Origin: an uncultured Methanosarcinales archaeon
Lineage (GTDB): Archaea > Nanobdellota > Nanobdellia > Woesearchaeales > DSVV01
Direction of reading: 5' to 3'
Length of the DNA: 64,000 bases
Assembly: GCA_964593285.1 (NCBI GenBank)
Contig: CAZQHZ010000004.1
Coordinates: 1-64,000, forward strand
A program made the translations under genes and the position numbers. Of the stretch, positions 363 to 53,560 are shown one piece after another. The stretch's first letter is position 1. Every line of letters starts with the position of its first letter. Under the pieces are notes generated by a model that made no database searches, was not told the origin of the DNA, and worked only from the letters and a program-made list of their open reading frames with translations.

Positions 363-1538
363 TTAAGAAAAAAATTCTTTTAATTCATTAACTTTATCTG
401 TCTTTTCCCAAGAAAATTCTTCTCTTCCAAAATGTCCATATGCTGCTGTTTGTTTATATATTGGATTTTTTAATTTTAAATGGGTTATTATTCCTTTTGG
501 AGTTAATGGGAATATTTCGTTTATTGCTTTTGAAATTTCTTCACTTTTAAATTTTGATGTATTAAAAGTATTTACATAAATGGATACTGGTTTTGAAACA
601 CCTATTGCATATGCTAATTGAATTTCACATCTTTTTGCAATTTTTGCAGCAACGATATTTTTAGCAATATATCTTGTCATGTATGCAGCACTTCTATCAA
701 CTTTGCTTGGATCTTTTCCAGAAAATGCACCACCACCATGTCTTCCCATACCTCCGTATGTATCAACAATTATTTTTCTTCCAGTAAGTCCTGTATCTCC
801 ATGTGGCCCACCTATAACAAATTTGCCTGTAGGATTTATGTAAATTGTTGTTTCATCATCAAGTAAATTGCCAAGTACTGGTTTTATTATTTTTTCTGTT
901 ATATCTTTTTTTATTGTTTCATATTCAACATCTGGAGAATGCTGTGCTGATATTACTACTGCTGTAACTTTTATTGGTTTTAAATTTTCATCATATTCAA
1001 CTGTTACTTGACTTTTTCCATCAGGTCTTAGATAATCTATAATATTTTTTTTCCTAACTTCTGTTAATTTTTTAGTTAATTTATGTGCAAGCATTATTGG
1101 CATTGGCATTAATTCTTCTGTTTCATCTGTTGCATAACCAAACATCATACCTTGATCGCCTGCGCCTTGCTCTTTAAATAAACCATCTCCTTCACTAACA
1201 CCTTGAGAAATATCTGGGCTTTGACCTTCAACACAATTTAAAACACCACATGAATTACCATTAAGGCCTTTATTACCATCATCATAACCAATTTCAAGAA
1301 TTGTTTCTCTTACAATTTTTGGAATATCAACATATGTATCTGTTGTAACTTCTCCGCCTACTACAACTAAACCAGTTTTAGTAAATGTTTCAATTGCAAC
1401 TCTTGCATCTTTATCATGTGTTAATATGTCATCTAAAATTGAATCAGAAATAATATCGCACATTTTATCTGGATGTCCTTCAGTAACTGATTCAGAACTA
1501 AATAAAAAATTTCCATTTTCTACATTTTTTTCTTCTAT
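363..1538 (-). CDS. metK: S-adenosylmethionine synthetase, bacterial/eukaryotic type
   Basis: Motifs [13 protein letters not shown] (upstream of the track ATG at 1463), GAGDQG and GGGAFSGKD; frame is open to ATA at 1538, preceded by TAA and an AAGGTGA SD. Confidence 0.95.
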
Positions 1539-7873: not shown

Positions 7874-8869
7874 TTATCGAAACATATTACTAACTAAAAA
7901 TCTTGCAATAAATAAAATTACTAAACTTGCAATCGTTATTAATGGAACATATCTAAGTCCGTGCGTTTTGTTTCCTTCTTCTAAAACTCCAATTAGAATC
8001 GATGCGAAAATTGATGTTGCAACTATCATAAATACAGACATCCAAAAAATAAATTTTGAAGATATTGCAATACCACCACCCATTAAACCTAAATCAAATT
8101 CATCTTCTGTTTCTATTTCTGTTTGTGTTTCGGGTTGATCTCCGCCCATACCCTCCATTATATCAACGAAATGAAGAGATACAGAATAAAGCATTGGTGC
8201 ACCAATAATTACTGTAAATAAAATAAACATAGTGTATGTTTTAGTTCCAGTTGCTAGTGCTTTTTTTAAAGATCTAGTTTCTGAAATGTCTTTTGCGGTT
8301 TCTTCCATTAAATCAGCCATGTGACTTCCTGCTTTCATTGATGTAATAAATAAAACAACAATTCTTGAAACTAATTTAGATTTTAATCTATTTGAAAATT
8401 CTAGTAATGAATTTTTAAAACTTTTCGCGCCAAGCGATTTAGTTGTTACAATTTCTATTTCTCTTTTTAATGGACCAAATTCTTCTCTTGCAGAAGATTT
8501 TAGTGCTTGGAAAGGGGTATAACCTGCACGCATGTTTGATGATACTAAATGCAAAAAATCAGGCATTACTTTTTCGATATGTTCTTTTCTATCTTCAACT
8601 TTAAAGTAAATCAATATATAATCAATAAAAATAATTGAAATGAATACAATAATTCCAATTGAAATAGACCAAATGAAATATTGATTAAAATAATAATAAA
8701 ATATAATATTGGTAGTTAAATAAATAAAAATTAAAAAGCAAAATAATTTTCCAAGTTTTATTTCAACATTATAATTTTTTTCAAGTAACTTAATAAAATC
8801 TTTATAATTATTTTTAAATTTAGCTGGAAAAAAACTACCAATTTTTCTAAAAAAATTTTCTAAAACCAT
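7874..8869 (-). CDS. Type IV pilus platform membrane protein (TadC/T2SSF family)
   Basis: MPDFLHLVSSNMRAG, EFGPLKREI, multiple TM helices; follows TadB-like gene. Confidence 0.88.
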   Translation of the reverse strand: MVLENFFRKIGSFFPAKFKNNYKDFIKLLEKNYNVEIKLGKLFCFLIFIYLTTNIIFYYYFNQYFIWSISIGIIVFISIIFIDYILIYFKVEDRKEHIEKVMPDFLHLVSSNMRAGYTPFQALKSSAREEFGPLKREIEIVTTKSLGAKSFKNSLLEFSNRLKSKLVSRIVVLFITSMKAGSHMADLMEETAKDISETRSLKKALATGTKTYTMFILFTVIIGAPMLYSVSLHFVDIMEGMGGDQPETQTEIETEDEFDLGLMGGGIAISSKFIFWMSVFMIVATSIFASILIGVLEEGNKTHGLRYVPLITIASLVILFIARFLVSNMFR

Positions 8870-8875
8870 TTTTTT

Positions 8876-9772
8876 TTACATATTAATTGCAGGTCTTCTT
8901 GATTGAATCAATCCAATTATTATAATTTGAACAAATAAGCACATAACTCCAAATGTAATAAATGTTATTTCATTTAATCCACCACCTGAAAAACTGGTTA
9001 AAATAAGCATTACTGTTGAACCAATAGTTGGGATTGCAACCGCAAATAACATGTAAATTAAAGACCACATATTAAGTTCTTGTGCATATCCTTTAATTTT
9101 ATCTTTATGATTTGAAAGCATATCATCAATAACAATTTTAAGAGCAGTTTTTAAATTACTACCAGATTTTATTACATTTAAAATTTGCCAGACAGTTCTT
9201 TTTAAAAAATCAGAGTTATTTCGTAAAACCATCTCTTCTAAAGCTTTTTCCATACTCATTCCAGATTGAACATTTTTTGCAGTTTTATCAAATTCTAAGC
9301 TAACTTGACCATAATTAGCTTTGCTTACAGCAACCATTGAATCAAATAAGGGTTTACCTGCACTTACTTGAAGTAATAAATCTTTTAGTGCAAAAACTAA
9401 ATTTTTTTCAATCTCTTCGGTTTTTTTACCTGCAATAATTGAAGGATATCTAATTGTTACAAGTAGTATTATAAAAAACAAAAAAAATCCAAGACCTAAT
9501 GCAAAGTAAATTGATTCAATAAAACTTCTAGCTTCAAGAATTATTAAAAGTGAAAATAAAAAAATTGAAATAAATATAAACCATAAAATTGAATTAAAGA
9601 ACATATGAGTAAAAAATTCATCTGTTTTGTATTTTAGATTTGTTGTTTTTAAAGCAAATTTAGTGTCAGGAAAAATTTTATTTAAAAAATTAGAAATAAA
9701 TTTTGCTCTTTTAGAAAAATTAACTGCAGGTTTTAGTGGAAAATAAACAAAAGGAATCCTTTCATTCTTCAT
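8876..9772 (-). CDS. Type IV pilus platform membrane protein (TadB/T2SSF family)
   Basis: IEKNLVFALKDLL..SAG, YGQVSLEF, TM helices; overlaps the ATPase stop. Confidence 0.88.
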   Translation of the reverse strand: MKNERIPFVYFPLKPAVNFSKRAKFISNFLNKIFPDTKFALKTTNLKYKTDEFFTHMFFNSILWFIFISIFLFSLLIILEARSFIESIYFALGLGFFLFFIILLVTIRYPSIIAGKKTEEIEKNLVFALKDLLLQVSAGKPLFDSMVAVSKANYGQVSLEFDKTAKNVQSGMSMEKALEEMVLRNNSDFLKRTVWQILNVIKSGSNLKTALKIVIDDMLSNHKDKIKGYAQELNMWSLIYMLFAVAIPTIGSTVMLILTSFSGGGLNEITFITFGVMCLFVQIIIIGLIQSRRPAINM

Positions 9773-11684
9773 TTTTTATAACCTCATTTAAAGTTGAATT
9801 TTTATTTATTGCAGTAAATAATTCATTTTTATTTCGATAATATACTTTCATTATTTTCCCAATTACATTTGTGTCATAAATTTCATTTTTAACTAACCAC
9901 TTTAAAACATTTTCTCGTTTTTTTAAATCCTCTTCAATTTCAGATGGTGTCATTCCTGTTCTTAAATTTAAATCTTCTAGTAATCTAATACTATTTTCTA
10001 TTTTTTCAAAAGTATCAGTTCTAGGTCTCCATCTATATAGATAGTTGATACTTAAATCATTGTCAAGTCTTCCTCCTCGTAAAATTTCTCCAATCTCAAG
10101 AGTTCTTCTTTTATTGTGTTGTCTGTCCCTATGTTGTACTAAAATTAAATGAAGTGCTTCAACTTCATTTTTTGGAATTGCAATTGGTGGCTCAACTAAT
10201 CTTCGAGTCATTTGTTCAACTGTATCTGCATGCATTGTAGTACAAACACTATGTCCTGTATGCATCGCTTCAAACATTGTTTCTGCTTGCTCTCGTGTTC
10301 TAACTTCTCCAACAATAATTCTATCAGGCCTCATTCTAAGGCTTGCAACAATTAAATCAAGCATGCTAATGCTTCCAAAACCTTCAATATTTTCTTTTTT
10401 ACTAACCATTGGAATCCAATTCCAGTTTAAATCTTCTGGTAAAATAAATTCTCGTGTATCTTCAATTGATACAATTCTTTGGTTTTTTGGAAGAAGTGCA
10501 CTTAATGCATTTAGTACTGAAGTTTTTCCAGATGCAGTTCCGCCGCAAACTAAAACATTTAATTCAAATTCAATAGCTTGCCATAAAAGAGCTGCAATTT
10601 CATAATTCATTACACCAAATTTAGGTGATACTAAATGCGTTATAGTCCATGGGCTTCTTGAAAAACGCCTAAATGTTATAGTATTTCCAGCAGAACTAAT
10701 TGGAAATAATGTTGCAGCAACTCGGTCGCCAGAAACTAAATGTGCATCCATTATTGGATTCAATCCATTTATGTCTCGCCCAACTTTTCGTCCAATCATT
10801 GAAGCATAATTATATGTTTCTTCTTCATCTTTTACATGGGTACAAGTTTTAACCCACCCATAATGTTTATGATAAACACATATTGGTTCATCAGATCTAT
10901 TGATACAAACTTCTTCTAAGAAATCATCAGACATTATAATATCTAAATCACCAAAACCATACATTTCTTGAACGATTAAGCCAGAAATTAATTTTTGTTC
11001 TTTTTGATTTAAATTTGGAAAGTATGTTTTTATTTTATTTAATGCATTTTTAAAAAATTTATTTCTTAGTTTAAATAATTTGTTAACATCTGTAATTTCA
11101 GAAATAGAAATATTTGTTTCATATGATAATTCATGTATTATATTTTCAACAACATATTTTGTGCATTCATCAAGTTTTGGTATAAATACTTTATATAGTG
11201 GCACATTTTCATTTTTAACATTATATATAACAATTAATGCTTTAACATCATCGCAAGTAACATTATAATATTCTAAAATCTCAATGGCTGTTGGTATTTT
11301 TGCTTTAATTTCTTGTAAACTAATTTGGTTTGTTGTTTCTTCATTTTTTGTAATAATATTTTTTGTATCTTGTTTATTATTTGCTTTATGTTCTCTTTTT
11401 TTTATATTAGGTGTTTTAATTGTTGTTGTATTTTTTTTTGAAATATTATTTTTATTTTTTAAAGTATTTTTGCTTTTTTTTTGTTTAATATTATTACTAG
11501 TTGCTTTTTTAATGCTTTGTTTTTTAATTTGCTTTACTATTTTTTTTTTAGTTAATTGTTTATTTACTTTTTTGTCTGCCTTTTTTATTATTTTTTTACT
11601 TTGTTTTTTAACGTTTTTTTTAGGTATAACTTTTTTTGCTTTAATTTTCTTAATTTTTTTCTTAGTTTTTTTTTGCGTTACCAT
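9762..11684 (-). CDS. Type IV pilus assembly ATPase (TadA/VirB11/CpaF family) with Lys-rich N-terminal extension
   Basis: Walker A GGTASGKT, SIEDTRE, LRMRPDRIIVGEVR, MHTGH. Confidence 0.95.
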   Translation of the reverse strand: MVTQKKTKKKIKKIKAKKVIPKKNVKKQSKKIIKKADKKVNKQLTKKKIVKQIKKQSIKKATSNNIKQKKSKNTLKNKNNISKKNTTTIKTPNIKKREHKANNKQDTKNIITKNEETTNQISLQEIKAKIPTAIEILEYYNVTCDDVKALIVIYNVKNENVPLYKVFIPKLDECTKYVVENIIHELSYETNISISEITDVNKLFKLRNKFFKNALNKIKTYFPNLNQKEQKLISGLIVQEMYGFGDLDIIMSDDFLEEVCINRSDEPICVYHKHYGWVKTCTHVKDEEETYNYASMIGRKVGRDINGLNPIMDAHLVSGDRVAATLFPISSAGNTITFRRFSRSPWTITHLVSPKFGVMNYEIAALLWQAIEFELNVLVCGGTASGKTSVLNALSALLPKNQRIVSIEDTREFILPEDLNWNWIPMVSKKENIEGFGSISMLDLIVASLRMRPDRIIVGEVRTREQAETMFEAMHTGHSVCTTMHADTVEQMTRRLVEPPIAIPKNEVEALHLILVQHRDRQHNKRRTLEIGEILRGGRLDNDLSINYLYRWRPRTDTFEKIENSIRLLEDLNLRTGMTPSEIEEDLKKRENVLKWLVKNEIYDTNVIGKIMKVYYRNKNELFTAINKNSTLNEVIKNEE

Positions 11685-11708
11685 TTTTTTTAAGTTTATA
11701 AGTTTTAT

Positions 11709-12128
<420 letters not shown>

Positions 12129-12136
12129 CCCTTTTT

Positions 12137-12976
12137 TTAGCCTTTGAGTAATAAAATAAAGCCTTCTTTTTTAATTTTTTCACTCCTAAATAAACTATCT
12201 GTGTTCGTTGTTATATAAATTTTTCTATCTAAATTATAAATTAATTTTTGATTTATTTTAGCATTTAAATTATTTGTAGTATTTATAATAAGATTTGATG
12301 ATTCAAAATTTATATTAAACTTTGGATTTGGCAGAGTATTATTAAATTCAAAATAAAAATTGTTTGATTTTGAAAAATTAATAAAATATTCATCTTTAGT
12401 TATAATTTCCTTGTTTTTATCAAGGATTGTTAATTTTAATAAATTCTCACCTGGATTTAAATTAAAATTTTTAATAGTAGAATGGTTATTTAAAGTATCT
12501 AACGTAATATTTAAATTAATTTGATTAATTTGATTAATTGTTATTTTTGTTTTAGTTTTATTTATAGAAACTGTTGTATTATATGGATTAATTAAAAAGC
12601 TTGGATTTAAATTTACTGACAGATTAGTATTTGAAATTTGTGAAAATTGATTATTTAAAAAATTTGAATAATTATCTAATAAATTTTTATAATCTAATTT
12701 TTCATTTGTTAAATTAAGATTAAATTTAACTATTTGGTTTGTTTGATTAAATTTTATATTTAAATCTTTTAAATCCATAATTTGTAAAAAATCATTTGCA
12801 ATAAATTTTTGGGCATTTTTAATTTTTGTTGGTTCTAATAAATTTAAAACCATTTCATTTCTAAATTCAACTCGATTTTTAAACCCTAAAATAAATAGAA
12901 TTAAAGTGCTAATTAAAAGAATGGTAATTACTGTAAATAAAACACCCTTTTTTGATTTAAATAACTTGGTATTCAT
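12137..12976 (-). CDS. Minor pilin-like protein (class III signal peptide)
   Basis: KSKKG|VLFTVITILLIS plus hydrophobic helix. Confidence 0.75.
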   Translation of the reverse strand: MNTKLFKSKKGVLFTVITILLISTLILFILGFKNRVEFRNEMVLNLLEPTKIKNAQKFIANDFLQIMDLKDLNIKFNQTNQIVKFNLNLTNEKLDYKNLLDNYSNFLNNQFSQISNTNLSVNLNPSFLINPYNTTVSINKTKTKITINQINQINLNITLDTLNNHSTIKNFNLNPGENLLKLTILDKNKEIITKDEYFINFSKSNNFYFEFNNTLPNPKFNINFESSNLIINTTNNLNAKINQKLIYNLDRKIYITTNTDSLFRSEKIKKEGFILLLKG

Positions 12977-13404
12977 TTATACCAACCTCTAATTTTTGTA
13001 ATATAAATTTCATCTTCATAAATTATCGGCTCATAGTATTGCATTGAATCAAGCAATATAAAATCTATACAATTGGTTTTTGTTGAATTTAAAATTTTTA
13101 TTTGATTATTATTTAAAATAGTTAATTCAATACAAAAATGATTTGGTAATATTTTGTAATATTTTTCAATATTTGAAATGTCATTATTTTTTATTGACTT
13201 TATAAATTCATTATTGTTTTTTAATAAATGAACAAAATCTGATGATATTTCATGCATTTCTAGATTATTATAACGCGGGAATTCTATTTTGTTTAAGTAA
13301 TAAAATATACTCGACATTAAAACAAAAGATATAAATAATGCAACTAGTGCATCTAAAGAAAATAAAATTGCTTTTTTTGTTAATTTTTTCATTCTAAAAT
13401 ACAC
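12973..13404 (-). CDS. Minor pilin-like protein (class III signal peptide)
   Basis: TKKA|ILFSLDALVAL. Confidence 0.75.
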   Translation of the reverse strand: MYFRMKKLTKKAILFSLDALVALFISFVLMSSIFYYLNKIEFPRYNNLEMHEISSDFVHLLKNNNEFIKSIKNNDISNIEKYYKILPNHFCIELTILNNNQIKILNSTKTNCIDFILLDSMQYYEPIIYEDEIYITKIRGWYK

Positions 13405-13913
13405 CCTGTAAATTTTATAAATGCAAAATTAGTATTATTTATTGGTTTAATTTTATTTAGAATAATTGAATGTGTACAATTATTTTTAAAACCATAATTT
13501 ATGTTATTGACAATATTTAAATTTTCGTTGTAAATTAAAAGATTTATCTTGAATTCATATCTTGGTCCAATTAAACCAATTAATTTTTTTGTTTCATTAT
13601 AATTTTCTTCTTTCATTAATTTATCTAATTTTTTTAAATTTAATTTATTATTTGAAATAACGCCTAGGCTTTTTGTTTCATTTAAATTATCTAATAAATA
13701 CCAATTTGAAGGATTTCCGGATGCTGAAAATATACCATTAAATGAATTTCTAATTACTAATTCAAAATCATTTCTGTTTTCATTATCATTTATTTTTGTA
13801 ACAGAATAATCCCATATTTTTGTAATAGATAAAAAAATGGTTATAAAAATGATTAATGCAATTATTGCATCTAGTGAATATGTTTGTGATTTTTTATATT
13901 TATTGATTAACAT
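13389..13913 (-). CDS. Minor pilin-like protein (class III signal peptide)
   Basis: YKKS|QTYSLDAIIALIIF. Confidence 0.78.
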   Translation of the reverse strand: MLINKYKKSQTYSLDAIIALIIFITIFLSITKIWDYSVTKINDNENRNDFELVIRNSFNGIFSASGNPSNWYLLDNLNETKSLGVISNNKLNLKKLDKLMKEENYNETKKLIGLIGPRYEFKINLLIYNENLNIVNNINYGFKNNCTHSIILNKIKPINNTNFAFIKFTGCILE

Positions 13914-14313
13914 AGATCTTACCTTGAATATTTGTAATATTTACTCGTCCACTTACCATTTTTTTATTATTTATATTTGAGGTTAAAATTGGGAAGTTGT
14001 ATCTTTTATGATCATAATTAATTTCAATTAACTTAGATTCATTATAAATTGTGATATTATAGTTCATTATTTTATTTAATCCATCTGGTAAATAAATGTA
14101 GCTTGAAAAACCATCACCGACTAAATGTGCACTATTTATAAGGAGTGCAAATTTTTCGGTTATTGCTTTTGCGTAAAATTCATCATTTTTTAGATTAAAT
14201 TGATTTTGTTTATTCATTGTAATTGAAAAAAAGATGGTAAAAAAAATTAATAACATAGATAAAATCATTATAAATTCAACATTTGCTTGGCTTTTTCTAT
14301 ATTTGTTTTTCAT
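13900..14313 (-). CDS. Pilin-like protein (class III signal peptide)
   Basis: YRKS|QANVEFIMILSMLL, Q+1 and E+5. Confidence 0.82.
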   Translation of the reverse strand: MKNKYRKSQANVEFIMILSMLLIFFTIFFSITMNKQNQFNLKNDEFYAKAITEKFALLINSAHLVGDGFSSYIYLPDGLNKIMNYNITIYNESKLIEINYDHKRYNFPILTSNINNKKMVSGRVNITNIQGKIYVNQ

Positions 14314-14399
14314 TGTAAAATTTATTTAAAGCATTAATTATTTTAAAACCTTATTTTTTACTAGTGTATTAAATTGATGCTACAGATTTTTGATTGATA

Positions 14400-17300
14400 T
14401 TAAATTTTTGTAATATCGCTTTCTTTATATCTAATTAATACGATTCCAGAGCCACCGCTACCACCATAAACTGTTTGAGGATTTTCACTTCCAGCACCAC
14501 CACCGCCACCACCAGTATTTGGTATGCCATCTTCGTCATAATATACATCATTTTGATTTGAACCATAACCAGAGCCACCACCACCTAGTCCTGCATTATC
14601 AATTTTTCCAGCATCATTTTCTGCAATACCAGCACCACCGCCACCAGCAAACCATCCATTATCACCATAGTCAGTTCCAAAATAATTACTAAAATCTAGT
14701 CCATCTCCACCACTTCCAGGTGCTATGGTACCAGTTTCACCAATACTGTCAGCACCACCGCCACCGCCAGCGTATGAATCTATAGTATCTCCTCCATCAT
14801 GACCTTGATTAGTTATACCACTACCTGAATCTAAATTACTATTGCTTCCAGCACCACCGCCACTACCGCCATTGCCACCAGCAATAGCACCATCTTTGTG
14901 TTTACCACCAAATCCACCACCTTCACTAGTAATTTCTGCAAAGGATGAATCTTCTCCTTTAGAATCTGGTAATCCACCATTTCCGATAATAACATTATGT
15001 TCTCCAGATGATAGCTGCAATTTAGTTGTTTCAACATTTGTTAATAATCCACCAGCACCACCGCCACCACCAGCAGATATAATTCCTCCTCCTCGGCCAC
15101 CTGGAGTTTTACCACCACTACCACCGCCGCCACCACCGGCAACGATTAAATATTCAACATCAACTTCAAAACCTTCAGGAATAGTAAAATTATCTATGCT
15201 CTCATTAGTAAATGCATGAATAATGTAGTCTTCAAAATAATAAATTTCTCCACCAATTGGATATTCTATTTCAATTGGATCTTCAATTATTGGTTCTGGC
15301 CCTATGTAATTTACATCATTAGATGTTATATTAGGTTCTGGAGTTATGTAACTTCTAGCATAAATTTGTCCAGGGAAATTATCTTTTGAAACTGTTTTAT
15401 AGATAAAATTATCATTTATACACATTTGAGATAATTGATTACCTGTTGCTTCTTGTTGAATATAATCAAACCAGTATGCTTTATTTGCTTCTAATTCTTT
15501 TGAATGCTGTGTTCCAGAAGTACCACAAGTTCCATCACCATGAGCACCATACCAATGAGCTACTACTTCATGTTCGCCATATGGCATAGTTGTTCTAAAA
15601 CCACCACTATAACCATCTTTTGGAAATATTGTAACTTCACTACCATCATCACTATTAGTTCCAAACCAATAAGTACCTGATGTTTTTGGAATAAACATAA
15701 ATCTATACCTAGAATAATATCTATCATCATCTCCGTATAAATTTAAATTATGATTTATTGTATTAACATAATCATAACCATCAATATCATATGGATTTAG
15801 ACCAATATTTGCTTTAATATGAGTTGCTTGTTCATGATTATCTAAATTACTGCAACCAATAGCACCAGAAGGACATCTTCCAGTAACTAAAAATATTTCA
15901 TCTTCTATGAAAACATTCTTAGCAGAACTTTTTGATACAGCATTATTATTACCATAATACAAATTAATTGTTGTTTCAAGTTCATTTATTTCATCATTAG
16001 TTTTAATCCAAACGTATGATTCATTATTTTCTAAATTGCATTCATCGATGTAATAGTCTAATTCAAAATCATCTGATGTAATAAATCTAAAATCCTTGCA
16101 TTCATTATCCCAATTATATGTATTGTTAAAGGTTGTATCATTTATATGTATTAATATTTGATAATTTTTTGGAATATATCCATTGTGTGCATTTATAGTT
16201 AATGGAACAAAATAATCCCATTGTTCAATTATTTCTTCAAATGGATCATCTGGTGGTAATTCATAATCAATTTCAACTATTGGTTCTAAAGTAGTATATT
16301 GTCTTGCATAAATTTGATCTGCAAAATTATTAATATTTAGTGTTTTATAACCAAAACCATCATCAATACATAATCTTGCTAATTGACCACCTGTAAATTC
16401 ATTTTGCATATAATCAATCCAGTAACCTTTATCTTTTTCTAAAATTATATTGCTAGTATCGCCTCCTGTTGTACAACCATTTCTTGCACCATGATTTCCA
16501 TACCAATTTGCAATTGTAAAATGTGGTCCAAATGGGTGTGATGTTTTAATCCCTCCACCATATCCATCTCCTGGAAAAAATGCAGCTTCACTACCATCAT
16601 CACTATTAGTTAAAAAAGTATATTCTCGTGTTTGCTTTGGAACAAATAAAAATCTATATCTTGAGTAATAATGATCATCATTTCCAAAAATATTCTCATC
16701 ATGATCTATTTTTTCAACATAGCCAAAATCATCAATATCATATGAATTAATGCCAATGTTTGCTCTAATATAATCAGCTTCAGCATGATTTGCAAAATTA
16801 TTACATCCAACATTTCCAGAAGGACATCTTCCAGTAACTAAGAAAATACTATCATTAATAAACACATTTGAAACGTTGCTTTCTGATTGTGCAAATTCAT
16901 TATCATAATACATTGTAATAGTTGTTCCATCTGTGGTTATTTCATCATTAATTTTAACCCAGACTTTTAATTCTTCTAAATCAGTATTGCAAGTTTCAAC
17001 CCAATAATCTACAACTTTTTTATTTTCATCAAAAAATCTAATATCATTACAATCATAACTCCAATTAAAATTATCAACTATAGTTGAATCTAAATTTACT
17101 AATACTTGATAATTTTTTGGTGTAGCTTCTGTTTGTGCTTTAATATGTATAGGTATTGAATGTTTCCATAATCCTTCTGCAAAACACATCATAGAGGGAC
17201 AATATACATCACATTCACTTTGTAGATTGTAAATATTTTTTATTTCTTCATCCATAAGGGTTCTATTCCAAATTGCGACTTCATCAATTAAACCATTTAA

Positions 17301-18914
17301 TATTTCATTATTAGGTCTTAATCCAAAATCATAATTATCACCATTGGTGCTAAAAGTTGTTTGACTATCACTTCCTGTATAAATTAATTGTGAATTTTTA
17401 TAAATTTTAGTAGTGCCTTCATCAAATACAAAAACCCAATGATTCCAAACATTTGTATCTAAAATATCAGGAATTATATGACTATTTCTCCAATTTCCTT
17501 GTAAATTCCATCGAACTCTTAAGTTACTTGGGCCTTGTGGATTTGCAAAAGTTGCTCCAAATTCAATTAAAACATTTCCATCTGCCCATAATAGATATTG
17601 GCTTTCTGATAATGAGTGTTGCATAACCCATGCGGCAATTGTAACTTGATTTTCTCCATTTAAAACATTAAAATTTTCAACTCTTAATCGATGATTATTT
17701 TCATTAAAGTATAGAGCTTTTCCAATTTTTCCATCAACATAATCTGCATTTGTAATTCCATTAAAATCATTTCCTGAATAATCTATAACATTAGAGGTTA
17801 AATCATTTAAATGAAATAATAATAAATTTTCACTCATATTAATTCCATTTTCTTTTGATAAAGATTCATCAACTCCAAAATTAGGTAATTCTCCACCAGA
17901 ATATATAAAATTTTGACATTTTGGATCAAAACAATCAATTAAGTCATCTGCATCGTTATCAATACCATCATCACAAGTTTCAATGCAAGTAGCACGTCCA
18001 TCAATACACATATTGTATTCATATCCTTCTTGTGTATCTCCTTCTTGTAATGAACATACAGGATTTGATTTTGCATAGTTACAGTTACCTGCGCCGTCAC
18101 AATATCCTTGGCTAGGTATTTTGCCACCACTATCATATCCATCATTTCCTGCAAAGGAACATTTAAAACTTGAATTGCATAAAGTTAATTTTTCCTCAAA
18201 CACACATTCATTATCAATACATGAAACACAATTTGAAGAACCTGGACAATCGGCTACATTATTGCAACAAATTCTATAATTTGGTCCATATAAACCTGTG
18301 CAATTATCATCAGAGCAGTCATCGCATGACCCAACACCATGTCCAGTACAACCACTTGTATCAAACATACAATTATCACTGCAACGTAAAATACCGCCAC
18401 TAAATTCTAAATCCATACATGTTTTTGAATTTAAATTTAAATTATCGCATTCTTCTCCTAGTTCAATAATACTATTTCCACAAACAGGTATATCATGAAT
18501 TTTTGAAATATTTGTGCTTATTAAAACAACATTATTTTGAGCTTCTATTTCAACATAATAACTCCCAACATTTGTTGGCAATTCTCCTAAAACATTATAA
18601 TTAAAATTTCTATATTTTGCAGTTCCACTAAAAAATGTTGCAGTAATTGTTTTATTTTTAATTGTAATATTTTCAATATTTTCTGGAACATCAATTAAAA
18701 CTTTTGTTTTTGCACCATCTCCTTGCTGATAAACCAAATTTGCTGCCATTACTATTTCATTTAATACAGAATCTGTTTTTTTTTGATCAATCATTGATTC
18801 ATATTGATTTAGAGATTTTTGACTTGTTTGAATAATAGTCATTAAAACTACTAAAGAAACAGCTAATAATACTAAGACTTCAATGCTACCTTGTGATCTT
18901 TTCTTAAAATACAA
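14400..18914 (-). CDS. Giant pilin-anchored adhesin: class III signal/pilin domain, Cys-rich repeats, LamG, 2x (DUF2341 + PA14-like), Gly-rich C-terminal domain
   Basis: KKRS|QGSIEVLVLL; CGNSIIELGEECD; CDDGIDNDADDLIDCFDPKC; TIAAWV..GLIDEVAIWNRTL; DIRFFD..YWVE..VWVK; TNSDDGS twice; YLIVAGGGGGG..GGSGIVLIRY. Confidence 0.85.
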   Translation of the reverse strand: MYFKKRSQGSIEVLVLLAVSLVVLMTIIQTSQKSLNQYESMIDQKKTDSVLNEIVMAANLVYQQGDGAKTKVLIDVPENIENITIKNKTITATFFSGTAKYRNFNYNVLGELPTNVGSYYVEIEAQNNVVLISTNISKIHDIPVCGNSIIELGEECDNLNLNSKTCMDLEFSGGILRCSDNCMFDTSGCTGHGVGSCDDCSDDNCTGLYGPNYRICCNNVADCPGSSNCVSCIDNECVFEEKLTLCNSSFKCSFAGNDGYDSGGKIPSQGYCDGAGNCNYAKSNPVCSLQEGDTQEGYEYNMCIDGRATCIETCDDGIDNDADDLIDCFDPKCQNFIYSGGELPNFGVDESLSKENGINMSENLLLFHLNDLTSNVIDYSGNDFNGITNADYVDGKIGKALYFNENNHRLRVENFNVLNGENQVTIAAWVMQHSLSESQYLLWADGNVLIEFGATFANPQGPSNLRVRWNLQGNWRNSHIIPDILDTNVWNHWVFVFDEGTTKIYKNSQLIYTGSDSQTTFSTNGDNYDFGLRPNNEILNGLIDEVAIWNRTLMDEEIKNIYNLQSECDVYCPSMMCFAEGLWKHSIPIHIKAQTEATPKNYQVLVNLDSTIVDNFNWSYDCNDIRFFDENKKVVDYWVETCNTDLEELKVWVKINDEITTDGTTITMYYDNEFAQSESNVSNVFINDSIFLVTGRCPSGNVGCNNFANHAEADYIRANIGINSYDIDDFGYVEKIDHDENIFGNDDHYYSRYRFLFVPKQTREYTFLTNSDDGSEAAFFPGDGYGGGIKTSHPFGPHFTIANWYGNHGARNGCTTGGDTSNIILEKDKGYWIDYMQNEFTGGQLARLCIDDGFGYKTLNINNFADQIYARQYTTLEPIVEIDYELPPDDPFEEIIEQWDYFVPLTINAHNGYIPKNYQILIHINDTTFNNTYNWDNECKDFRFITSDDFELDYYIDECNLENNESYVWIKTNDEINELETTINLYYGNNNAVSKSSAKNVFIEDEIFLVTGRCPSGAIGCSNLDNHEQATHIKANIGLNPYDIDGYDYVNTINHNLNLYGDDDRYYSRYRFMFIPKTSGTYWFGTNSDDGSEVTIFPKDGYSGGFRTTMPYGEHEVVAHWYGAHGDGTCGTSGTQHSKELEANKAYWFDYIQQEATGNQLSQMCINDNFIYKTVSKDNFPGQIYARSYITPEPNITSNDVNYIGPEPIIEDPIEIEYPIGGEIYYFEDYIIHAFTNESIDNFTIPEGFEVDVEYLIVAGGGGGGSGGKTPGGRGGGIISAGGGGGAGGLLTNVETTKLQLSSGEHNVIIGNGGLPDSKGEDSSFAEITSEGGGFGGKHKDGAIAGGNGGSGGGAGSNSNLDSGSGITNQGHDGGDTIDSYAGGGGGADSIGETGTIAPGSGGDGLDFSNYFGTDYGDNGWFAGGGGAGIAENDAGKIDNAGLGGGGSGYGSNQNDVYYDEDGIPNTGGGGGGAGSENPQTVYGGSGGSGIVLIRYKESDITKI
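15330..17175 (-). repeat. Internal duplication in the adhesin with 951-bp (317-aa) period; ends approximate
   Basis: GGACATCTTCCAGTAACTAA at 15871 and 16822; duplicated IFLVTGRCPSG, YYSRYRF, TNSDDGSE, QIYAR. Confidence 0.85.
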
Positions 18915-18953
18915 AAAGTTTCCACCCCTTTTTAATAAAATAAATATTAGTAA

Positions 18954-20010
18954 TTAATAAACGTTGTGTTCTGGATAAACAATTATTCCTTCAAATGTAA
19001 TTTTTAAAGGATTAATTTTTGTTGAATGATTAGTTCCACGCATTTTAAAAACTTCAATACTACGTTCTCTAACATCACCTTTTTTTATATTATACATAAA
19101 AATAACACCTTCAGATTGATATTCTTCAACAGTTGATACATGCTCTTCTGGATTTAGTGTTTGTTCTGAGACTAAAAGAGTTGTACAATCCCATTTTTTT
19201 AGTGTTTTAAATAAACTCATTAACGCTTTTCTTTGTTCATTTGATGTTTTATAAAGTAGAGTAAATGCAGTAACAGAATCAATAACCGCTCTTTTTGCAT
19301 TTATAGATTCAATAACTTCCCTTACAGGTCCACCACCAATTGCTATTACTCTATCAACTTGCTCTGGTGAAAAATATAATAATGCAATCTTTTTTTCCTT
19401 AATTTTTTTTTCAATATCAAAATCAAATCTTTTCATATCTTCAATTAAAGTTTCAGGTTCTTCCTCAAATGAAATATAAACACCATTTTCACCGCATTTA
19501 TCAATTCCATTAATTAAGTATTGCATTGCAAATATACTCTTACCACTCCCAGGGCCTCCACAAAGCAGTGTTACAGAATCCTTAACAAAACCACCCTCAA
19601 TAGTTTCATCAAAACCTTCAATTCCTGTCGCAACCCTATTTTCTGGTATTTTAATTTCTCCTTCATCTTGATCTTTTTCTCGAAGAGTATCTTTAATTGT
19701 AGCTTTTAGGAAAGCCATATCAAATTTTTTTGGTTTTTCTTTTTCTAAATCTTTAGACAAACTTTCTTTTAATGAAGCAAAAGGTGATTTTGATTTTTTT
19801 TTTGTAATGTCTTTTGAAATGTCTTCTTTAAGNNNNNNNNNNNNNNNNNNNNNNNNNNNNNNNNNNNNNNNNNNNNNNNNNNNNNNNNNNNNNNNNNNNN
19901 NNNNNNNNNNNNNNNNNNNNNNNNNNNNNNNNACTTTTCTTAGAATTATTTTTTGAATTAGGTTTAGTTTGTTTGTCATTAGTTTTTTTAATGTTTTTTG
20001 GTTTACTCAT
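18954..20010 (-). CDS. Single-domain KaiC/RecA-superfamily ATPase with Lys-rich N-terminus, spanning an assembly gap
   Basis: RVATGIEGFD, Walker A GGPGSGKS, ISFEE, Walker B AVIDS, KMRGTNH; probable start ATG 20010 upstream of the N-gap. Confidence 0.88.
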
Positions 20011-20078
20011 TTTAAATTAAATTTCTTGCCTAACTACATAAATAAATTAAATAAAAAAAAATTAAAAAGAAAAAAAAC

Positions 20079-20564
20079 TTAGATTGCACAGTTAGCTTCA
20101 TAATAATTTCCATCACCAGTTATTCTGTATTGACTACCTGTTTGTAAATCTGTATATGTTATTGTTAATGCAACGAAAAAATTTTGTTCAGCTGTACAAA
20201 ATCCATCCATGTCTATATCTATTTGTTGCTGTCCTCCAGGTGATAATGTTGGTAAATCTTGGTCAATGTATTCTATATCTGCGTCAGATGCTGCAGGAGG
20301 CTCTATTGAAATGTTGTTAATAATAACTGCATTTCGCATATTATTTCGTAAAGTTATTTGCCCTGTTCCTCCTTCATTTAAACTAAGTGACATTACACCA
20401 ACATCTTGAGTACTCCAATATGCCTGTGCACCTTGTGTTCCTACGTTACTCCCAATTCCTGGGAATCTTCCCATAGCAACAACTACAACTAATGCAATAA
20501 CAATAACTACTGCTAAAATTATTAAATATTCTGTAGCTGTCTGCCCTTTTCTAAAAAATTTCAT
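20079..20564 (-). CDS. Probable major type IV pilin (class III signal peptide)
   Basis: MKFFRKG|QTATEYLIILAVVIVIALVVV; strong AAGGAGGT SD; followed by T-rich tract. Confidence 0.85.
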   Translation of the reverse strand: MKFFRKGQTATEYLIILAVVIVIALVVVVAMGRFPGIGSNVGTQGAQAYWSTQDVGVMSLSLNEGGTGQITLRNNMRNAVIINNISIEPPAASDADIEYIDQDLPTLSPGGQQQIDIDMDGFCTAEQNFFVALTITYTDLQTGSQYRITGDGNYYEANCAI

Positions 20565-20578
20565 TTTTTCTACCTCCT

Positions 20579-21136
20579 TTATTCAATTCTGTATGTTTTG
20601 TCAACAAACATACTTATTTTTTCAATTAAATTAGCTTCATCTTTACCATCTAGGCAAATGAGTGTGAGTGTTGATTTACTTATTCTTATTTTATTAACTA
20701 AATCTTTTGTGAATTTTATAATCATTTGTTCTGGGTTATAAATAAGTAATGATGATAAACTATCAAATAGAATATATTTTGGCTCAGATGCTTCACTAAC
20801 TTTATTTATTGATATAGATAAACTAGTTAATGCAGAGGGCGAGTCAATAAATAAACAATTATCTGCATTTAAATCTTTACTTCCAGTCATTTTAGTTGAT
20901 GTATCAATAAAAAAGATAGAATCTGTATCAATTTTGATTTTTTCTAAAAAACCAACTAACGATTTAAAAGGTCTAGTTAGTGTAACATAGCAAGATACAT
21001 CTTTTTTAAAATTATTTTTTGAAAATTCTTTTATAAAATCTTGATATTTTTCAGGTTTTACAATAAATAAAGCTGCCTGGACTTCTTTGTCAATATTCAA
21101 ATTCCATTTCTTTTTATCAGGCATTTTATTTACCAC
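20579..21136 (-). CDS. Degenerate KaiC-like/RecA-fold protein lacking Walker A
   Basis: CYVTLTRP, IFFID, YILFDSLSSLLIYN, FVDK pattern; no GxxGxGK. Confidence 0.7.
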   Translation of the reverse strand: MVNKMPDKKKWNLNIDKEVQAALFIVKPEKYQDFIKEFSKNNFKKDVSCYVTLTRPFKSLVGFLEKIKIDTDSIFFIDTSTKMTGSKDLNADNCLFIDSPSALTSLSISINKVSEASEPKYILFDSLSSLLIYNPEQMIIKFTKDLVNKIRISKSTLTLICLDGKDEANLIEKISMFVDKTYRIE

Positions 21137-21752
21137 CAGATATTTTATTTATAATTCCAAGTAATCCATTAAATGATTTATGGCTTAGTAAAAGGATTAT
21201 TTGTCCATCTACTGTTTTTGATTTTGAAAGTTTAAATTTCATATCAACCTTTATTAAAATTCCTTTTTTATAATTTTCACTAATATTAAAATAAACATAA
21301 TCATAAATTTGATTTCCAAAAGATGGGACAACTGTTGGTGTTGAATGTACTGAATTTATACCTAAGAATTTATTTAAAACACCCAATATTTTTCCAGAAA
21401 CAACATTTCCAAGTTCAGATAATACATTTTTTACATCATCATCTACTAATTTTGTTTTTTTTCTTTTTTTTTTTAAAGCATCATATAAAGTTAACGCTGA
21501 ATCTTTTGGAAAAGTAATTACTATATTTCCATCTAAATCTCCTTTTGTTAAAGTAGAATAAATACCAAGCATCAAAACAGGAGCTTTGTCATCATGAGAG
21601 TCTTTATCATCAACAGATACAATTGTTTTAGCGTTAATATTTAATTCAACTGGTTTTTTTAGTAAATTAGATAAAGCGATTGCAGAATGATATGAGCACA
21701 TATTTGTAAATTCCATTAATGCATCTTCTTGTATCTTTGAAATTTTAACCAA
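21126..21752 (-). CDS. CheC-like response-regulator phosphatase
   Basis: DALMEFTN (D-x3-E-x2-N) and SELGN-x22-P; GDLDGNIVITFP. Confidence 0.85.
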   Translation of the reverse strand: MVKISKIQEDALMEFTNMCSYHSAIALSNLLKKPVELNINAKTIVSVDDKDSHDDKAPVLMLGIYSTLTKGDLDGNIVITFPKDSALTLYDALKKKRKKTKLVDDDVKNVLSELGNVVSGKILGVLNKFLGINSVHSTPTVVPSFGNQIYDYVYFNISENYKKGILIKVDMKFKLSKSKTVDGQIILLLSHKSFNGLLGIINKISGGK

Positions 21753-21758
21753 TTTTTT

Positions 21759-22130
21759 TTATTCACCTAAATTTTCATTAACTAATTTTATTAGTTCTTC
21801 TTCATCAAATGGTTTTTTTATATACCCTACAGCGCCTAACTTATATGCTTCATCTATTGTGTATTGTTGAGCGATTGATGAAACAATAATACATTTAATT
21901 TTTAATTTTTCTTCATTGACAAATTTTAATACATCAAACCCTGATGAATTTGGCATATTTAAATCTAAAAGCACTAAATTTGGTTTTTCTGTTTTTAATA
22001 ATTTTTTTGCTTCATCTCCAGATGATGTTTTTATAATATTTTTAAATCCTGCATTATTTAAAACTCTTTTTATTAATATTCTCATAAATTCTGAATCATC
22101 GACAATTAAAATTTCTTTCTCATTTGTCAT
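21759..22130 (-). CDS. CheY-like single-domain response regulator
   Basis: ILIVDD, LVLLDLNMP (phosphoacceptor D), IIVSS, YIKKPF. Confidence 0.93.
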   Translation of the reverse strand: MTNEKEILIVDDSEFMRILIKRVLNNAGFKNIIKTSSGDEAKKLLKTEKPNLVLLDLNMPNSSGFDVLKFVNEEKLKIKCIIVSSIAQQYTIDEAYKLGAVGYIKKPFDEEELIKLVNENLGE

Positions 22131-22172: not shown

Positions 22173-22186
22173 TTTATAAATTTTTC
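22173..22186 (-). promoter_or_regulatory. Candidate BRE-TATA promoter of the CheY/pilus operon
   Basis: GAAAAA-TTTATAAA on the minus strand about 43 nt upstream of the receiver ATG; AT-rich background lowers specificity. Confidence 0.4.
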
Positions 22187-22238
22187 TTTTTTAAAAATAG
22201 TTATATTTATAAATAACCTCTTTTTCTACATTAACATT

Positions 22239-51778: not shown

Positions 51779-53560
51779 ATGGAAAATGAAAATAATAGTA
51801 CTGGATTTGAAAAAAATACTGATCTTGAAACAATACTTAAAATAAATTTTCCAGAAAATGTAATTCATGGAACTTTTCTTTGCGATATAAATCAAAATAC
51901 AATTTTTATAAATGATGAATTTTCTAAAATTACAGGATATAGTAAAGAAGAAATAATAGGAAAAAAAATATTAAATGAAAATTTATGGTTTAAAAAAGAA
52001 GATAGAAAAGAATATTTAAAAATACTTGATGAATTTGGACGAGTAGATAAAGCAGTGGGTTATTTTAAAAAAAAAGATGATAAAATAATTCCAGTAACAA
52101 TTTCTAGCACTTTTAATAAAACAAAAAAAAATGAAACACTAGGCTATCAAGGGATTTTACAGGATTATAGTGAAATTTTAAATAATTTTTTTAAAATACA
52201 ACTAGATAGATTAATGGAAAAACAAATCAATATTTTAGATACTTTTACTTCAACAGATAATTTAGATGAATTAATTAAAGAAACAAATTATTGGCTTTCA
52301 AAAATTTTTTATGCAAAATCAAGTTCTATTTTTTTATATGATTATGAACATAATAATTTTTTTTTAAAAAATGAAAATTATAAAAGGCTTGATGAAAAAT
52401 TAATAATTAAACACGATAAAAATTCAAGAACGCCAATTAATTATGCCATTAGAATGAACAAACCCTTAGTTGTATTAAATGGAAAAGCTTTAGTAAAAGA
52501 AAATAGAGAATCCATTGTTGAAAAGTCTAGAAAAATAATTAAGTCAAATGAATCATATGAAAATATAATTTTAAAATCTCTTTTAAATGAAACTAATGAG
52601 AGTAATTATAAAATTTTAAAATTAGATGATTTATCACTTGAATTAAATGGTAATGAATATTATGAAAAACCAGAAAATTTTATTATAATACCACATGTTA
52701 TAAAACAGCCAATTAATAAATTAACAGGTGTTATATGTTTATCAAATATTAATTCAAATGAAATATTTACATATATAAATCAACTTGAAAATAATCCAAA
52801 AGGAATTGGTAGTGCTAAAAAATTTGCACAAGAATTTTTTGTTGATGAGTCATATCAAAATAGCATTCATAATTTTTTTTTGAAAATGGCAAATCGAGTA
52901 GCGACAAATATTGGAACAAAAATTAAATCTGCTCAAAATTATTCTATAATATTGGATCAATCAGAGCGAGATCATTTAACAGGACTTTATAATCAACGAA
53001 AAATGCATGAAATATTATCAAAAGATTTCAACAAAGTTAAAAAACACAATAATATAAAATGTGAAAAAAGAAAAGGTATTAAAAAAGATTTATCTTTAAT
53101 CATGCTTGATTTAGATGATTTTAAAGAAATAAATGATAGGTATGGTCATGATATTGGCGATTTAACTTTGAAAAAAATAGGGAATAGACTTTATGAATGT
53201 GTTAGAGATGATGATTATATATTTAGATACGGTGGAGAAGAATTTTTAATTTCATTATATAATGCAGATTTAAATGTTAGTAAAAAAATATCTAAAAGAC
53301 TATTAGATACAATTTCTAAATATGTTTCATTAGACATAAAAAAAGATTTATTAAATAAATGTGTTGATGAAAAAAAATTAGATGAGTTAATTCCAAGACA
53401 AATAACTGCAAGTATTGGAATTTCTAATTATAATGAAAATAAAGTAAAAACATATCAAGAATTAATAAAAAATGCAGATCTTGCTTTATATAATTCTAAA
53501 AAATGTGGTAAAAATAGGTTTTGTTGTTATGATAAAACTTTGGTAGAAAAATTAAAATAA
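51779..53560 (+). CDS. PAS-(GAF-like)-GGDEF diguanylate cyclase
   Basis: PAS INDEFSKITGYSKEEIIGK; DHLTGLYN, DLDDFKEINDRYGHDIGD, RDDDYIFRYGGEEF, TASIG, ADLALYNSKKCGKNR. Confidence 0.93.
   Translation: MENENNSTGFEKNTDLETILKINFPENVIHGTFLCDINQNTIFINDEFSKITGYSKEEIIGKKILNENLWFKKEDRKEYLKILDEFGRVDKAVGYFKKKDDKIIPVTISSTFNKTKKNETLGYQGILQDYSEILNNFFKIQLDRLMEKQINILDTFTSTDNLDELIKETNYWLSKIFYAKSSSIFLYDYEHNNFFLKNENYKRLDEKLIIKHDKNSRTPINYAIRMNKPLVVLNGKALVKENRESIVEKSRKIIKSNESYENIILKSLLNETNESNYKILKLDDLSLELNGNEYYEKPENFIIIPHVIKQPINKLTGVICLSNINSNEIFTYINQLENNPKGIGSAKKFAQEFFVDESYQNSIHNFFLKMANRVATNIGTKIKSAQNYSIILDQSERDHLTGLYNQRKMHEILSKDFNKVKKHNNIKCEKRKGIKKDLSLIMLDLDDFKEINDRYGHDIGDLTLKKIGNRLYECVRDDDYIFRYGGEEFLISLYNADLNVSKKISKRLLDTISKYVSLDIKKDLLNKCVDEKKLDELIPRQITASIGISNYNENKVKTYQELIKNADLALYNSKKCGKNRFCCYDKTLVEKLK

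Follow-up and report, generated by a model that had tools for sequence, protein, structure and literature searches.

A CheY–CheC pair and two KaiC-like proteins in a woesearchaeal type IV pilus operon: a possible branch of the chemosensory pathway

What does a chemotaxis-type CheY do when its gene heads a pilus operon? This question is raised by 14 minus-strand open reading frames (ORFs) at positions 7874–22130 of a 64,000-nucleotide stretch of DNA (the window, which is bases 1–64000 of contig C4) from the archaeal genome G000 (1.18 Mb in 38 contigs, 95.9% complete). They encode a CheY-type receiver, a CheC-family phosphatase, an inactive KaiC-like protein (pseudo-KaiC), an intact KaiC-family ATPase and the parts of a type IV pilus. 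Archaeal chemotaxis has so far been described solely as CheY–CheF–archaellum. Our answer is tentative: we give slightly less than an even chance to the reading that a system-1-like adhesive pilus is under the control of a satellite branch of the genome's chemosensory pathway, with the pseudo-KaiC/KaiC pair in between. The operon names a small, soluble and testable set of proteins (CheA, CheY, CheC, pseudo-KaiC, KaiC and the pilus ATPase), which bears on two questions: KaiC-family signalling hubs in archaea, and the control of attachment by DPANN symbionts.

The signalling head of the operon

A first description of this DNA, made from the sequence alone (the sequence-only reading), had placed 14 co-oriented genes here. 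The ORF list and domain scans recovered all 14 in the order then given, and profile scans upheld the identities of the receiver, CheC, KaiC, the TadA-like ATPase, TadB and TadC. The genes and elements of the head, followed by the CheA gene on another contig, are:

22173–22191, minus strand: BRE-TATA promoter-like element, about 45–60 nt upstream of cheY
21759–22130, minus strand: CheY-type stand-alone receiver, 123 residues (PF00072, 2e-28)
21126–21752, minus strand: CheC-family phosphatase, 208 residues (CheC/CheX Pfam, 9e-08/4e-11)
20579–21136, minus strand: inactive KaiC-like protein (iKaiC, DUF7504/DUF835-like) with a KaiC/RecA fold and no Walker A
20079–20564, minus strand: probable major pilin, 161 residues, class III signal RKGQ/TATEY (PF04021 at 7e-4, below the cut-off)
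20040–20078, minus strand: T-rich, putatively terminator-like tract after the pilin gene
18954–20010, minus strand: single-domain KaiC-family ATPase with a low-complexity N-terminus (PF06745, 5e-63; scaffold gap at 19833–19932)
C7:29695–31674: CheA

The start codon of pseudo-KaiC is probably the ATG at 21124, 1 nt past the CheC stop, and that of KaiC probably the ATG at 20010. From cheY to cheC, pseudo-KaiC and pilin, the spacings are 6, about 1 and 14 nt.

We propose that the chemoreceptors and CheA of contig C7 would phosphorylate the extra CheY of the operon, from which the dedicated CheC would strip the phosphate. Phosphorylated CheY would bind pseudo-KaiC, an adaptor replacing CheF, and pseudo-KaiC would shift the intact KaiC to another oligomer or ATPase state. 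KaiC may then affect the pilus ATPase in the way that ArlH affects ArlI. Chemical cues would set the extension or withdrawal of adhesive pili, with host or surface attachment as the most plausible purpose; the adhesin domains and the DPANN lifestyle are what suggest a host.

The operon CheY is a stand-alone receiver with an acidic pocket, a phospho-acceptor Asp, Ser/Thr and Lys, and residues D11, D12, D56 and K106 are invariant in its orthologues. In an unrooted tree of 60 receivers, one branch (support 99/97) gathered 25 receivers encoded next to pseudo-KaiC genes and four further receivers of G000 (contigs C9, C10 and C22), forming the side of receivers linked to kinases or pseudo-KaiC. Six pilus receivers and 20 CheYs from che clusters fell outside it. 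An acidic-pocket signature, D-S-x-[FLM] (DDSxFM in the operon CheY), occurs in 6/6 pilus receivers, 20/20 che receivers and 1/26 other receivers adjacent to pseudo-KaiC, and the sole bearer among these 26 is itself a che-cluster CheY. On sequence grounds, the operon receiver appears to side with the chemotaxis CheYs, apart from the kinase-linked receivers.

This placement bears on a rival that we consider decidedly unlikely, namely that the module regulates the pilus but takes its input from an ordinary HisKA sensor kinase instead of CheA, CheC being merely a recruited phosphatase. The receiver lies outside the kinase-linked clade and has the che-type signature, and CheA is present in all carriers of the module; both points speak against such an input. 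Kinases do accompany related loci, as one lies inside the equivalent module of genome G051 and another directly upstream of KaiC–adhesin in G031, and most pseudo-KaiC relatives sit with receivers, often with kinases as well. Two kinases of G000 itself were typed as HisKA by Pfam, and C5 and C8 hold three further HATPase_c genes.

The active-site motif of CheC is D/S-x3-E-x2-N-x22-P. In the operon protein, which matches a CheC in the PDB at 3e-11, the second site is complete (with N at the first position), and the first reads D-x3-E-x2-N without the proline. Residues E14/N17 and E113/N116/P139 are invariant in 9/9 sequences. With the catalytic E and N thus kept at both sites, the initial call of a CheC-like phosphatase is well founded as a prediction. 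The pilus CheC grouped with pseudo-KaiC-adjacent CheCs of G159 and G246 (SH-aLRT 91), a grouping on long branches on which we do not rely.

Pseudo-KaiC has only weak Pfam matches and no P-loop motif. Its predicted structure (pLDDT 87.9, from a 15-row alignment) best matches the archaeal KaiC-like ATPase PH0284 (Z 16.3, root-mean-square deviation 2.7, 167 aligned residues) and KaiC (Z 14.7), and the protein falls in the Atlas KaiC/DUF7504 clusters (0.97). The model thus predicts a KaiC/RecA fold without Walker A, in agreement with the Walker-A-less KaiC-like protein first described, although a shared fold is no proof of function. As a profile comparison between pseudo-KaiC and the operon KaiC was not significant (E 0.11), their relationship rests on the fold search. 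Across genera, pseudo-KaiC is 63–68% identical, on par with KaiC and the pilus ATPase and above CheY (41–46%). Because a protein without a P-loop is conserved like the two ATPases, its conservation fits a binding hub.

The intact KaiC carries Walker A (GGPGSGKS), SFEE and KMR motifs and scores 152 bits with TIGR03880 versus 54 bits with the ArlH model. It was rejected as an ArlH, as the cut-off of that model is 215 bits and a search with a relative's ArlH found no orthologue in the genome. A Glu-Glu presumably takes the place of the phospho-Ser/Thr of cyanobacterial KaiC CII, and we therefore propose no autophosphorylation clock.

In this assembly, the head is joined to the pilus genes solely by a 100-N scaffold gap at 19833–19932, inside the KaiC gene, with the head module to one side and the remaining operon genes to the other. 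The true length of the gap is above 100 nt. A contig of run X2, from a study other than that of the probable source run, spans it, and the relatives G010, G018 and G022 are contiguous across the matching region. The best-matching runs are microbial mat metagenomes from two studies; contigs of three runs have one extra base at window position 20563, in the A-run before the pilin start codon, which leaves the frame unaffected.

Upstream of cheY, the columns of an AAA..AAA.TTT[AT]TAAA block are invariant in 5/5 aligned regions. This conserved promoter is common to cheY–cheC and the major pilin gene, which supports the suggested tie of the pair to the pilus. A scan for sigma-70 promoters and hairpin terminators gave chance levels, but such a scan is unsuited to archaea. 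A T-rich tract lies 3' of the major pilin gene in 4/4 genomes printed (G000, G010, G018 and G022); as it follows this gene, the cheY–cheC–pseudo-KaiC–pilin transcript may be stronger than the remainder of the operon.

The same tract could favour a different output, in which the relay acts on the small winged helix-turn-helix (HTH) protein of the operon or on read-through past the pilin gene, and so sets the amount of pilus rather than its dynamics. CheY/CheC pairs normally work on fast time-scales, which counts against this very unlikely alternative, as do the weak HTH evidence and the presence of the winged HTH gene at a second pilus locus that has no KaiC or receiver nearby. Besides the T-tract, it can draw on the retention of the probable winged HTH protein before the ATPase, and on CirA. 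The latter is KaiC-like. In Haloferax, CirA is reported to lower arl transcription (PMC10983859).

The genes that flank the operon are archaeal (TFIIB, L44e, EF-1A and EF-2 by Pfam scan). The organism belongs to the Woesearchaeales (DPANN), and close homologues of the operon proteins are labelled Nanobdellota or Woesearchaeota, in line with the DPANN symbiont assumed at the outset.

Chemosensory and archaellum genes outside the operon

The locus had been described as lacking archaellins, CheA, CheW, CheF and chemoreceptors, and none of these matched among the 14 operon and 16 flanking proteins scanned. Elsewhere in G000, contig C7 holds a che cluster (cheY-cheY-cheB-Hpt-cheA-cheC-cheC-cheD-cheR-cheW-CBS-cheC-like) and two chemoreceptors, and its CheA is a five-domain protein with a P2 domain. 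Archaellin (PF01917) matches are found outside the operon only, on contigs C5, C8 and C9, where five archaellins and an ArlC are encoded. The idea of a self-contained, orphan switch must thus be given up. The head module is most likely a branch of the C7 chemosensory pathway.

The sequence-only reading had also named a complete che/archaellum system elsewhere in the genome as a finding that would count against it. Such a system was found in part: the che cluster, chemoreceptors, archaellins and ArlC are present, whereas CheF, ArlD/E and ArlF/G/H/I/J were not found. Profiles for CheF (PF04283) and ArlD/E (PF04659) matched nothing in G000, although a very divergent CheF is possible. The ArlJ and ArlI models matched only pilus proteins in G000, below cut-off, and no orthologue of a relative's ArlF, G, H, I or J was found in this 95.9% complete genome. 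Searches by tblastn with the ArlF, ArlG and ArlJ of G010 gave no match below E 0.19 anywhere in G000. The pilus ATPase was considered as the missing ArlI and rejected, as it scores 261 bits on the ArlI model against a cut-off of 550 and is 31% identical to the ArlI of G010; the true ArlI proteins of relatives score 650–730 bits.

In G010, G018 and G021, arlB–arlC continues into arlG-F-H-I-J. In G000 it continues into a helicase-like gene across a gap-free junction (C8:13871–16473: an archaellin and ArlC, with a run of Ns inside a repeat, followed by the helicase-like gene). The arl motor block is separate from arlB–arlC in G014, G015 and G024. The motor block of G000 could be lost or unassembled, since a separate block, as in these relatives, lets it be unassembled. 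As a full chemosensory pathway is present and no swimming motor was detected, the sensing pathway likely controls pilus-based attachment. A bolder version, which we regard as rather unlikely, is that chemotaxis in CheF-less Woesearchaeales runs through a dead KaiC adaptor, a KaiC ATPase and a pilus motor, that the archaellum motor has been lost, and that the whole CheA pathway steers adhesive pili. Were this so, bacterial Pil-Chp would have its first known equivalent among archaea, in a symbiont that uses it to find or grip its host.

Alternatively, the module may be co-expressed with the pilus but act elsewhere, for instance on the archaellum (at ArlC or ArlH), either replacing CheF or serving as a brake, and so coordinate a swim-to-stick switch. 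We hold this to be unlikely. It would account for the archaellin matches in all five carriers of the module (the two of G008 are partial) and for the lack of CheF, whose profile (PF04283) matched in 0/61 genomes (G000 and 60 relatives) and in three positive control genomes. The pilus operon also converges on arlGFHIJ in G010, and pilins and CirA of Haloferax are reported to regulate archaellum motility (PMC10983859). Against it, 14 archaellin-bearing relatives lack the module, four of which have che genes (G021, G025, G046 and G057), and a better candidate for a CheF substitute ends the che cluster itself.

This candidate stand-in for CheF (C7:36286–37458) is a 390-residue protein with a CheC/FliM-like core between helical ends, conserved in G018, G022, G025 and G046.

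The distribution of the motor argues in the same direction. Archaellins occur in 19 of the 61 genomes, of which 15 have ArlI above cut-off and G060 a split match. The archaellin-bearing genomes without ArlI are G000, G008 and G022, all of them carriers. The motor was thus not found in 3/5 carriers versus 0/19 other archaellin-bearing genomes, a comparison that includes five further genomes with archaellins and ArlH (Fisher p 0.005). This is a hint only, as G022 is 68% complete, G008 is split into about 100 contigs and the genomes are related to one another.

Other chemosensory genes were noted as well. The two chemoreceptor genes (C7:14560–27212) are interleaved with other genes, which we take to be hydrogenase-maturation (hyp) and NikR genes from their resemblance, and in G010 and G022 the che cluster has the same genes next to it. 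An orphan divergent CheC at C11:35988–36862 is preceded by a 73-residue protein, and the pair is kept in G025.

Distribution of the module among relatives

CheC was matched in 8 of the 60 relatives, with an orthologue (53–59% identity) in four: G008, G010, G018 and G022. These belong to two other genera of the same family as G000, and orthologous DNA between these genera is about 66–73% identical. All four have the order cheY–cheC–pseudo-KaiC–pilin. The whole operon lies on one contig in G010 and G022, is contiguous up to the adhesin in G018, and has its head and tail on two contigs in G008. The head, as far as KaiC, recurs on one metagenome contig. The expected link of cheY–cheC to the pilus in related genomes therefore holds at each orthologue found, in 4/4 relatives and on one metagenome contig; four close loci from the protein search are not counted beyond these. 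Clusters with CheA, CheB, CheR and CheC are present in all five carrier genomes.

A metagenome scan with the CheC alignment returned 12 loci, one an orthologue and the other 11 distant (19–33% identity). The protein search found 15 pseudo-KaiC relatives besides that of the window, 13 of them at 61–87% identity. As the pilus CheC orthologues also form a single 50%-identity cluster, the module appears by sequence to be restricted to a narrow clade.

Such a narrow distribution could also arise if a cheY–cheC–pseudo-KaiC fragment landed once, within a small clade, upstream of a KaiC–pilus operon to which it bears no functional relation. That all carriers are in one family, that their CheCs form one cluster and that KaiC–pilus loci elsewhere lack the module are consistent with this. 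Yet order, tight spacing and promoter are kept across three genera with differing neighbour genes, pseudo-KaiC is strongly conserved, and pseudo-KaiCs of separate clades stand beside the KaiC of this pilus in G053, G197 and G051. We therefore judge mere hitch-hiking to be highly improbable.

A wider set of 251 genomes of the order, each at least 90% complete, places the operon in context. CheW was found in 17/251; of 14 tested, five had ArlH and archaellins and nine had neither. Loci were fetched from eight of these nine; CheA was seen in six, and the other two showed only a chemoreceptor and CheW. As 9/14 CheW genomes lack ArlH and archaellin, archaellum-less chemosensory systems recur in the order. 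The pseudo-KaiC family is present in 75/251 genomes (three unpublished included), and in the 27 loci read, a receiver gene is adjacent in 13, CheC at a che-cluster edge in two and a TadC-like gene in three. A KaiC orthologue passes 1e-60 in 26/251 genomes (one unpublished included).

Two arrangements from other families echo the wiring of the operon as independent parallels. G051, from another family, has receiver–pseudo-KaiC–histidine kinase–KaiC–adhesin–minor pilins–ATPase–platforms. G159 and G246, from a third family, have CheC–pseudo-KaiC–small protein–long KaiC beside a che cluster, followed by giant surface-type proteins of 3700–3900 residues; no ArlH or archaellin was found in these genomes, and no pilus ATPase in the stretch fetched.

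A number of findings weigh against control of the pilus by the chemosensory pathway. All protein–protein and phosphotransfer steps were inferred from gene context and homology. The placement of the pilus CheYs within the che group is weakly supported (26/29), and they are only 41–46% identical between genera; the main chemotaxis CheY diverges more slowly (80–84% identity to genus g11 and 61% to G008). At least two HisKA kinases are encoded in G000, along with 12 receiver domains. The T-tract may separate the head from the KaiC–ATPase part of the operon, and five intact archaellins and an ArlC may mean that the motor genes are simply unassembled in 38 contigs. Both G010 and G018 hold the module along with an intact arlGFHIJ cluster, and the che system therefore has a conventional target there. 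The carriers are close kin and may reflect one shared ancestral event, and the pilus-linked pseudo-KaiCs are not one clade (five changes). In other families, pilus genes lie within 1.5 kb of 15/23 KaiC loci, pseudo-KaiC near 4/23 and a kinase near 1/23; a receiver or CheC was found within this distance at 0/23. Because 15/23 of these KaiC loci are pilus-linked and none has a receiver or CheC, KaiC is a regular component of this pilus type and the CheY–CheC head is a lineage-specific addition.

The pilus and its relation to known systems

The remaining genes of the operon are:

14400–18914, minus strand: adhesin with a pilin-type N-terminus, 1504 residues (two DUF2341 domains, LamG, Gly_rich_2 and a weak PA14; KRSQ motif)
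13900–14313, minus strand: minor pilin-like protein 1 (RKSQ motif and hydrophobic helix; syntenic homologues)
13389–13913, minus strand: minor pilin-like protein 2 (KKSQ motif and hydrophobic helix; syntenic homologues)
12973–13404, minus strand: minor pilin-like protein 3 (non-canonical KKAI site; hydrophobic helix)
12137–12976, minus strand: minor pilin-like protein 4, 279 residues (KKGV site; hydrophobic helix)
11709–12128, minus strand: small protein whose N-terminal domain is probably a winged HTH (weak HTH matches)
9762–11684, minus strand: pilus assembly ATPase of VirB11/TadA type, not ArlI (T2SSE, 5e-30)
8876–9772, minus strand: platform protein 1, TadB-like (T2SSF, 2e-15)
7874–8869, minus strand: platform protein 2, TadC-like (T2SSF, 8e-14)

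The probable major pilin has one N-terminal hydrophobic helix, and relatives of it are encoded at comparable loci in other families. The claim of four minor pilins stands in part: two have the [KR][GAS]Q motif, the other two only KKAI or KKGV and one hydrophobic helix, and none of the four matched a pilin-family Pfam. The adhesin, whose DUF2341 match is at 6e-24, varies in length (1299 residues in G010 and 279 in G022). A winged HTH protein had also been called, a weak assignment (IclR at 0.002 by profile, HTH_24 at 0.025); a homologous gene stands ahead of the ATPase gene both in relatives and at the second pilus locus of G000. The Walker and Asp/His boxes of the ATPase are intact. The genome-wide search for kinases and prepilin peptidase that had been advised found CheA, at least two HisKA kinases and two A24 prepilin-peptidase candidates, on C22 (6e-16) and, more weakly, on C13 (3e-4; 379 residues, eight hydrophobic segments).

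The second pilus locus (C1:44436–51253) has three pilin-like genes, a winged HTH homologue, an ATPase and two platform genes, with no KaiC or receivers nearby. A 6581-residue protein (C9:23767–43512) is strongly similar to the operon adhesin (6e-117), and its homologue adjoins the archaellum operon in relatives.

By gene content, we class the pilus as a non-archaellum type IV pilus that is system-1-like. As reported for type IV filament system 1/clade 1 (the Epd pilus of Methanococcus maripaludis; PMC4858521, PMC13705601), it combines one ATPase and two platform genes with a DUF2341 adhesin, a set of minor pilins (at least three) and class III signals. The pairing of two platform genes with one ATPase is also seen in clade 2 and subsystem 4B, so this feature is not diagnostic of system 1. 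Unlike system 1, the major pilin in the operon, where pilins were searched, is a protein of 161 residues with a globular part instead of a short arCOG06620, no EppA gene lies in the locus, and KaiC, pseudo-KaiC, CheY and CheC are added. System 1 pilins have been reported in 1990 Nanobdellati genomes (PMC13705601). The main text of that paper mentions 'CheY' and 'KaiC' 0 times, and in its supplementary tables KaiC appears solely under the archaellum and subsystem 4B.

The CheY and CheC types, the CheA/B/C/D/R/W cluster and the chemoreceptors resemble the euryarchaeal route from CheY-P through CheF and ArlCDE to ArlH/I/J, as outlined in PMC9126983 and PMC10117864, as does a KaiC-family protein adjoining a type IV filament ATPase. 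In the archaellum itself, the KaiC homologue ArlH is reported to bind and regulate ArlI (10.1101/2021.03.19.436134). In contrast to the euryarchaeal output, no CheF or ArlD/E was found, the ATPase and KaiC are not ArlI and ArlH, respectively, and an extra CheY–CheC pair lies within the pilus operon. The platform consists of two single-domain genes rather than one two-domain ArlJ as in the archaellum, and the locus has no archaellin. KaiC ATPases beside type IV pilus loci are known from subsystem 4B and clade 2 (PMC4858521), and fusions of a receiver to iKaiC have been published (PMC5847659). In the texts consulted, no iKaiC (DUF835, MEDS) is described in a setting like that of the pseudo-KaiC here, which is flanked by a chemotaxis-type CheY and CheC and shares a pilus operon with an intact KaiC.

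Bacterial Tfp-class chemosensory systems (Pseudomonas Pil-Chp, cyanobacterial Tax1) likewise join CheY-type receivers to a type IV pilus motor, a connection that is predicted here. Compared with Pil-Chp, the archaeal pilus has a single ATPase, a five-domain CheA with P2, CheC and CheD accompany it, and the predicted output passes through KaiC-family proteins. By analogy, the operon would work like a chemosensory-controlled type IV pilus; it is not a member of the bacterial Tfp class. The parts are known (KaiC by archaeal pili, receiver–iKaiC fusions, DPANN system 1 pili and bacterial chemosensory pili), but the combination was not found in the literature searched. A CheY–CheC module in an archaeal pilus operon appeared in no title or abstract there, most subscription papers lying outside the search. 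A 2016 survey states that there was no evidence of archaeal chemotaxis regulating other pili (PMC4858521), and one of 2022 reports no chemotaxis system in DPANN (PMC9680633). Expression of CheABCD by one woesearchaeal metagenome-assembled genome has since been noted (PMC11606122). Experimental evidence for KaiC-family proteins as archaeal signalling hubs is described as missing (PMC10117864).

Two further observations were made in the window and genome. At window positions 363–1463 (minus strand) lies an S-adenosylmethionine synthetase whose three Pfam matches are to domains of the bacterial/eukaryotic type; the enzyme of most archaea is of another type. Proteins whose translations contain a GGEEF motif are encoded at window positions 51779–53560 (plus strand) and at C11:34159–35124, and by resemblance they may be diguanylate cyclases, an unusual find for an archaeon.

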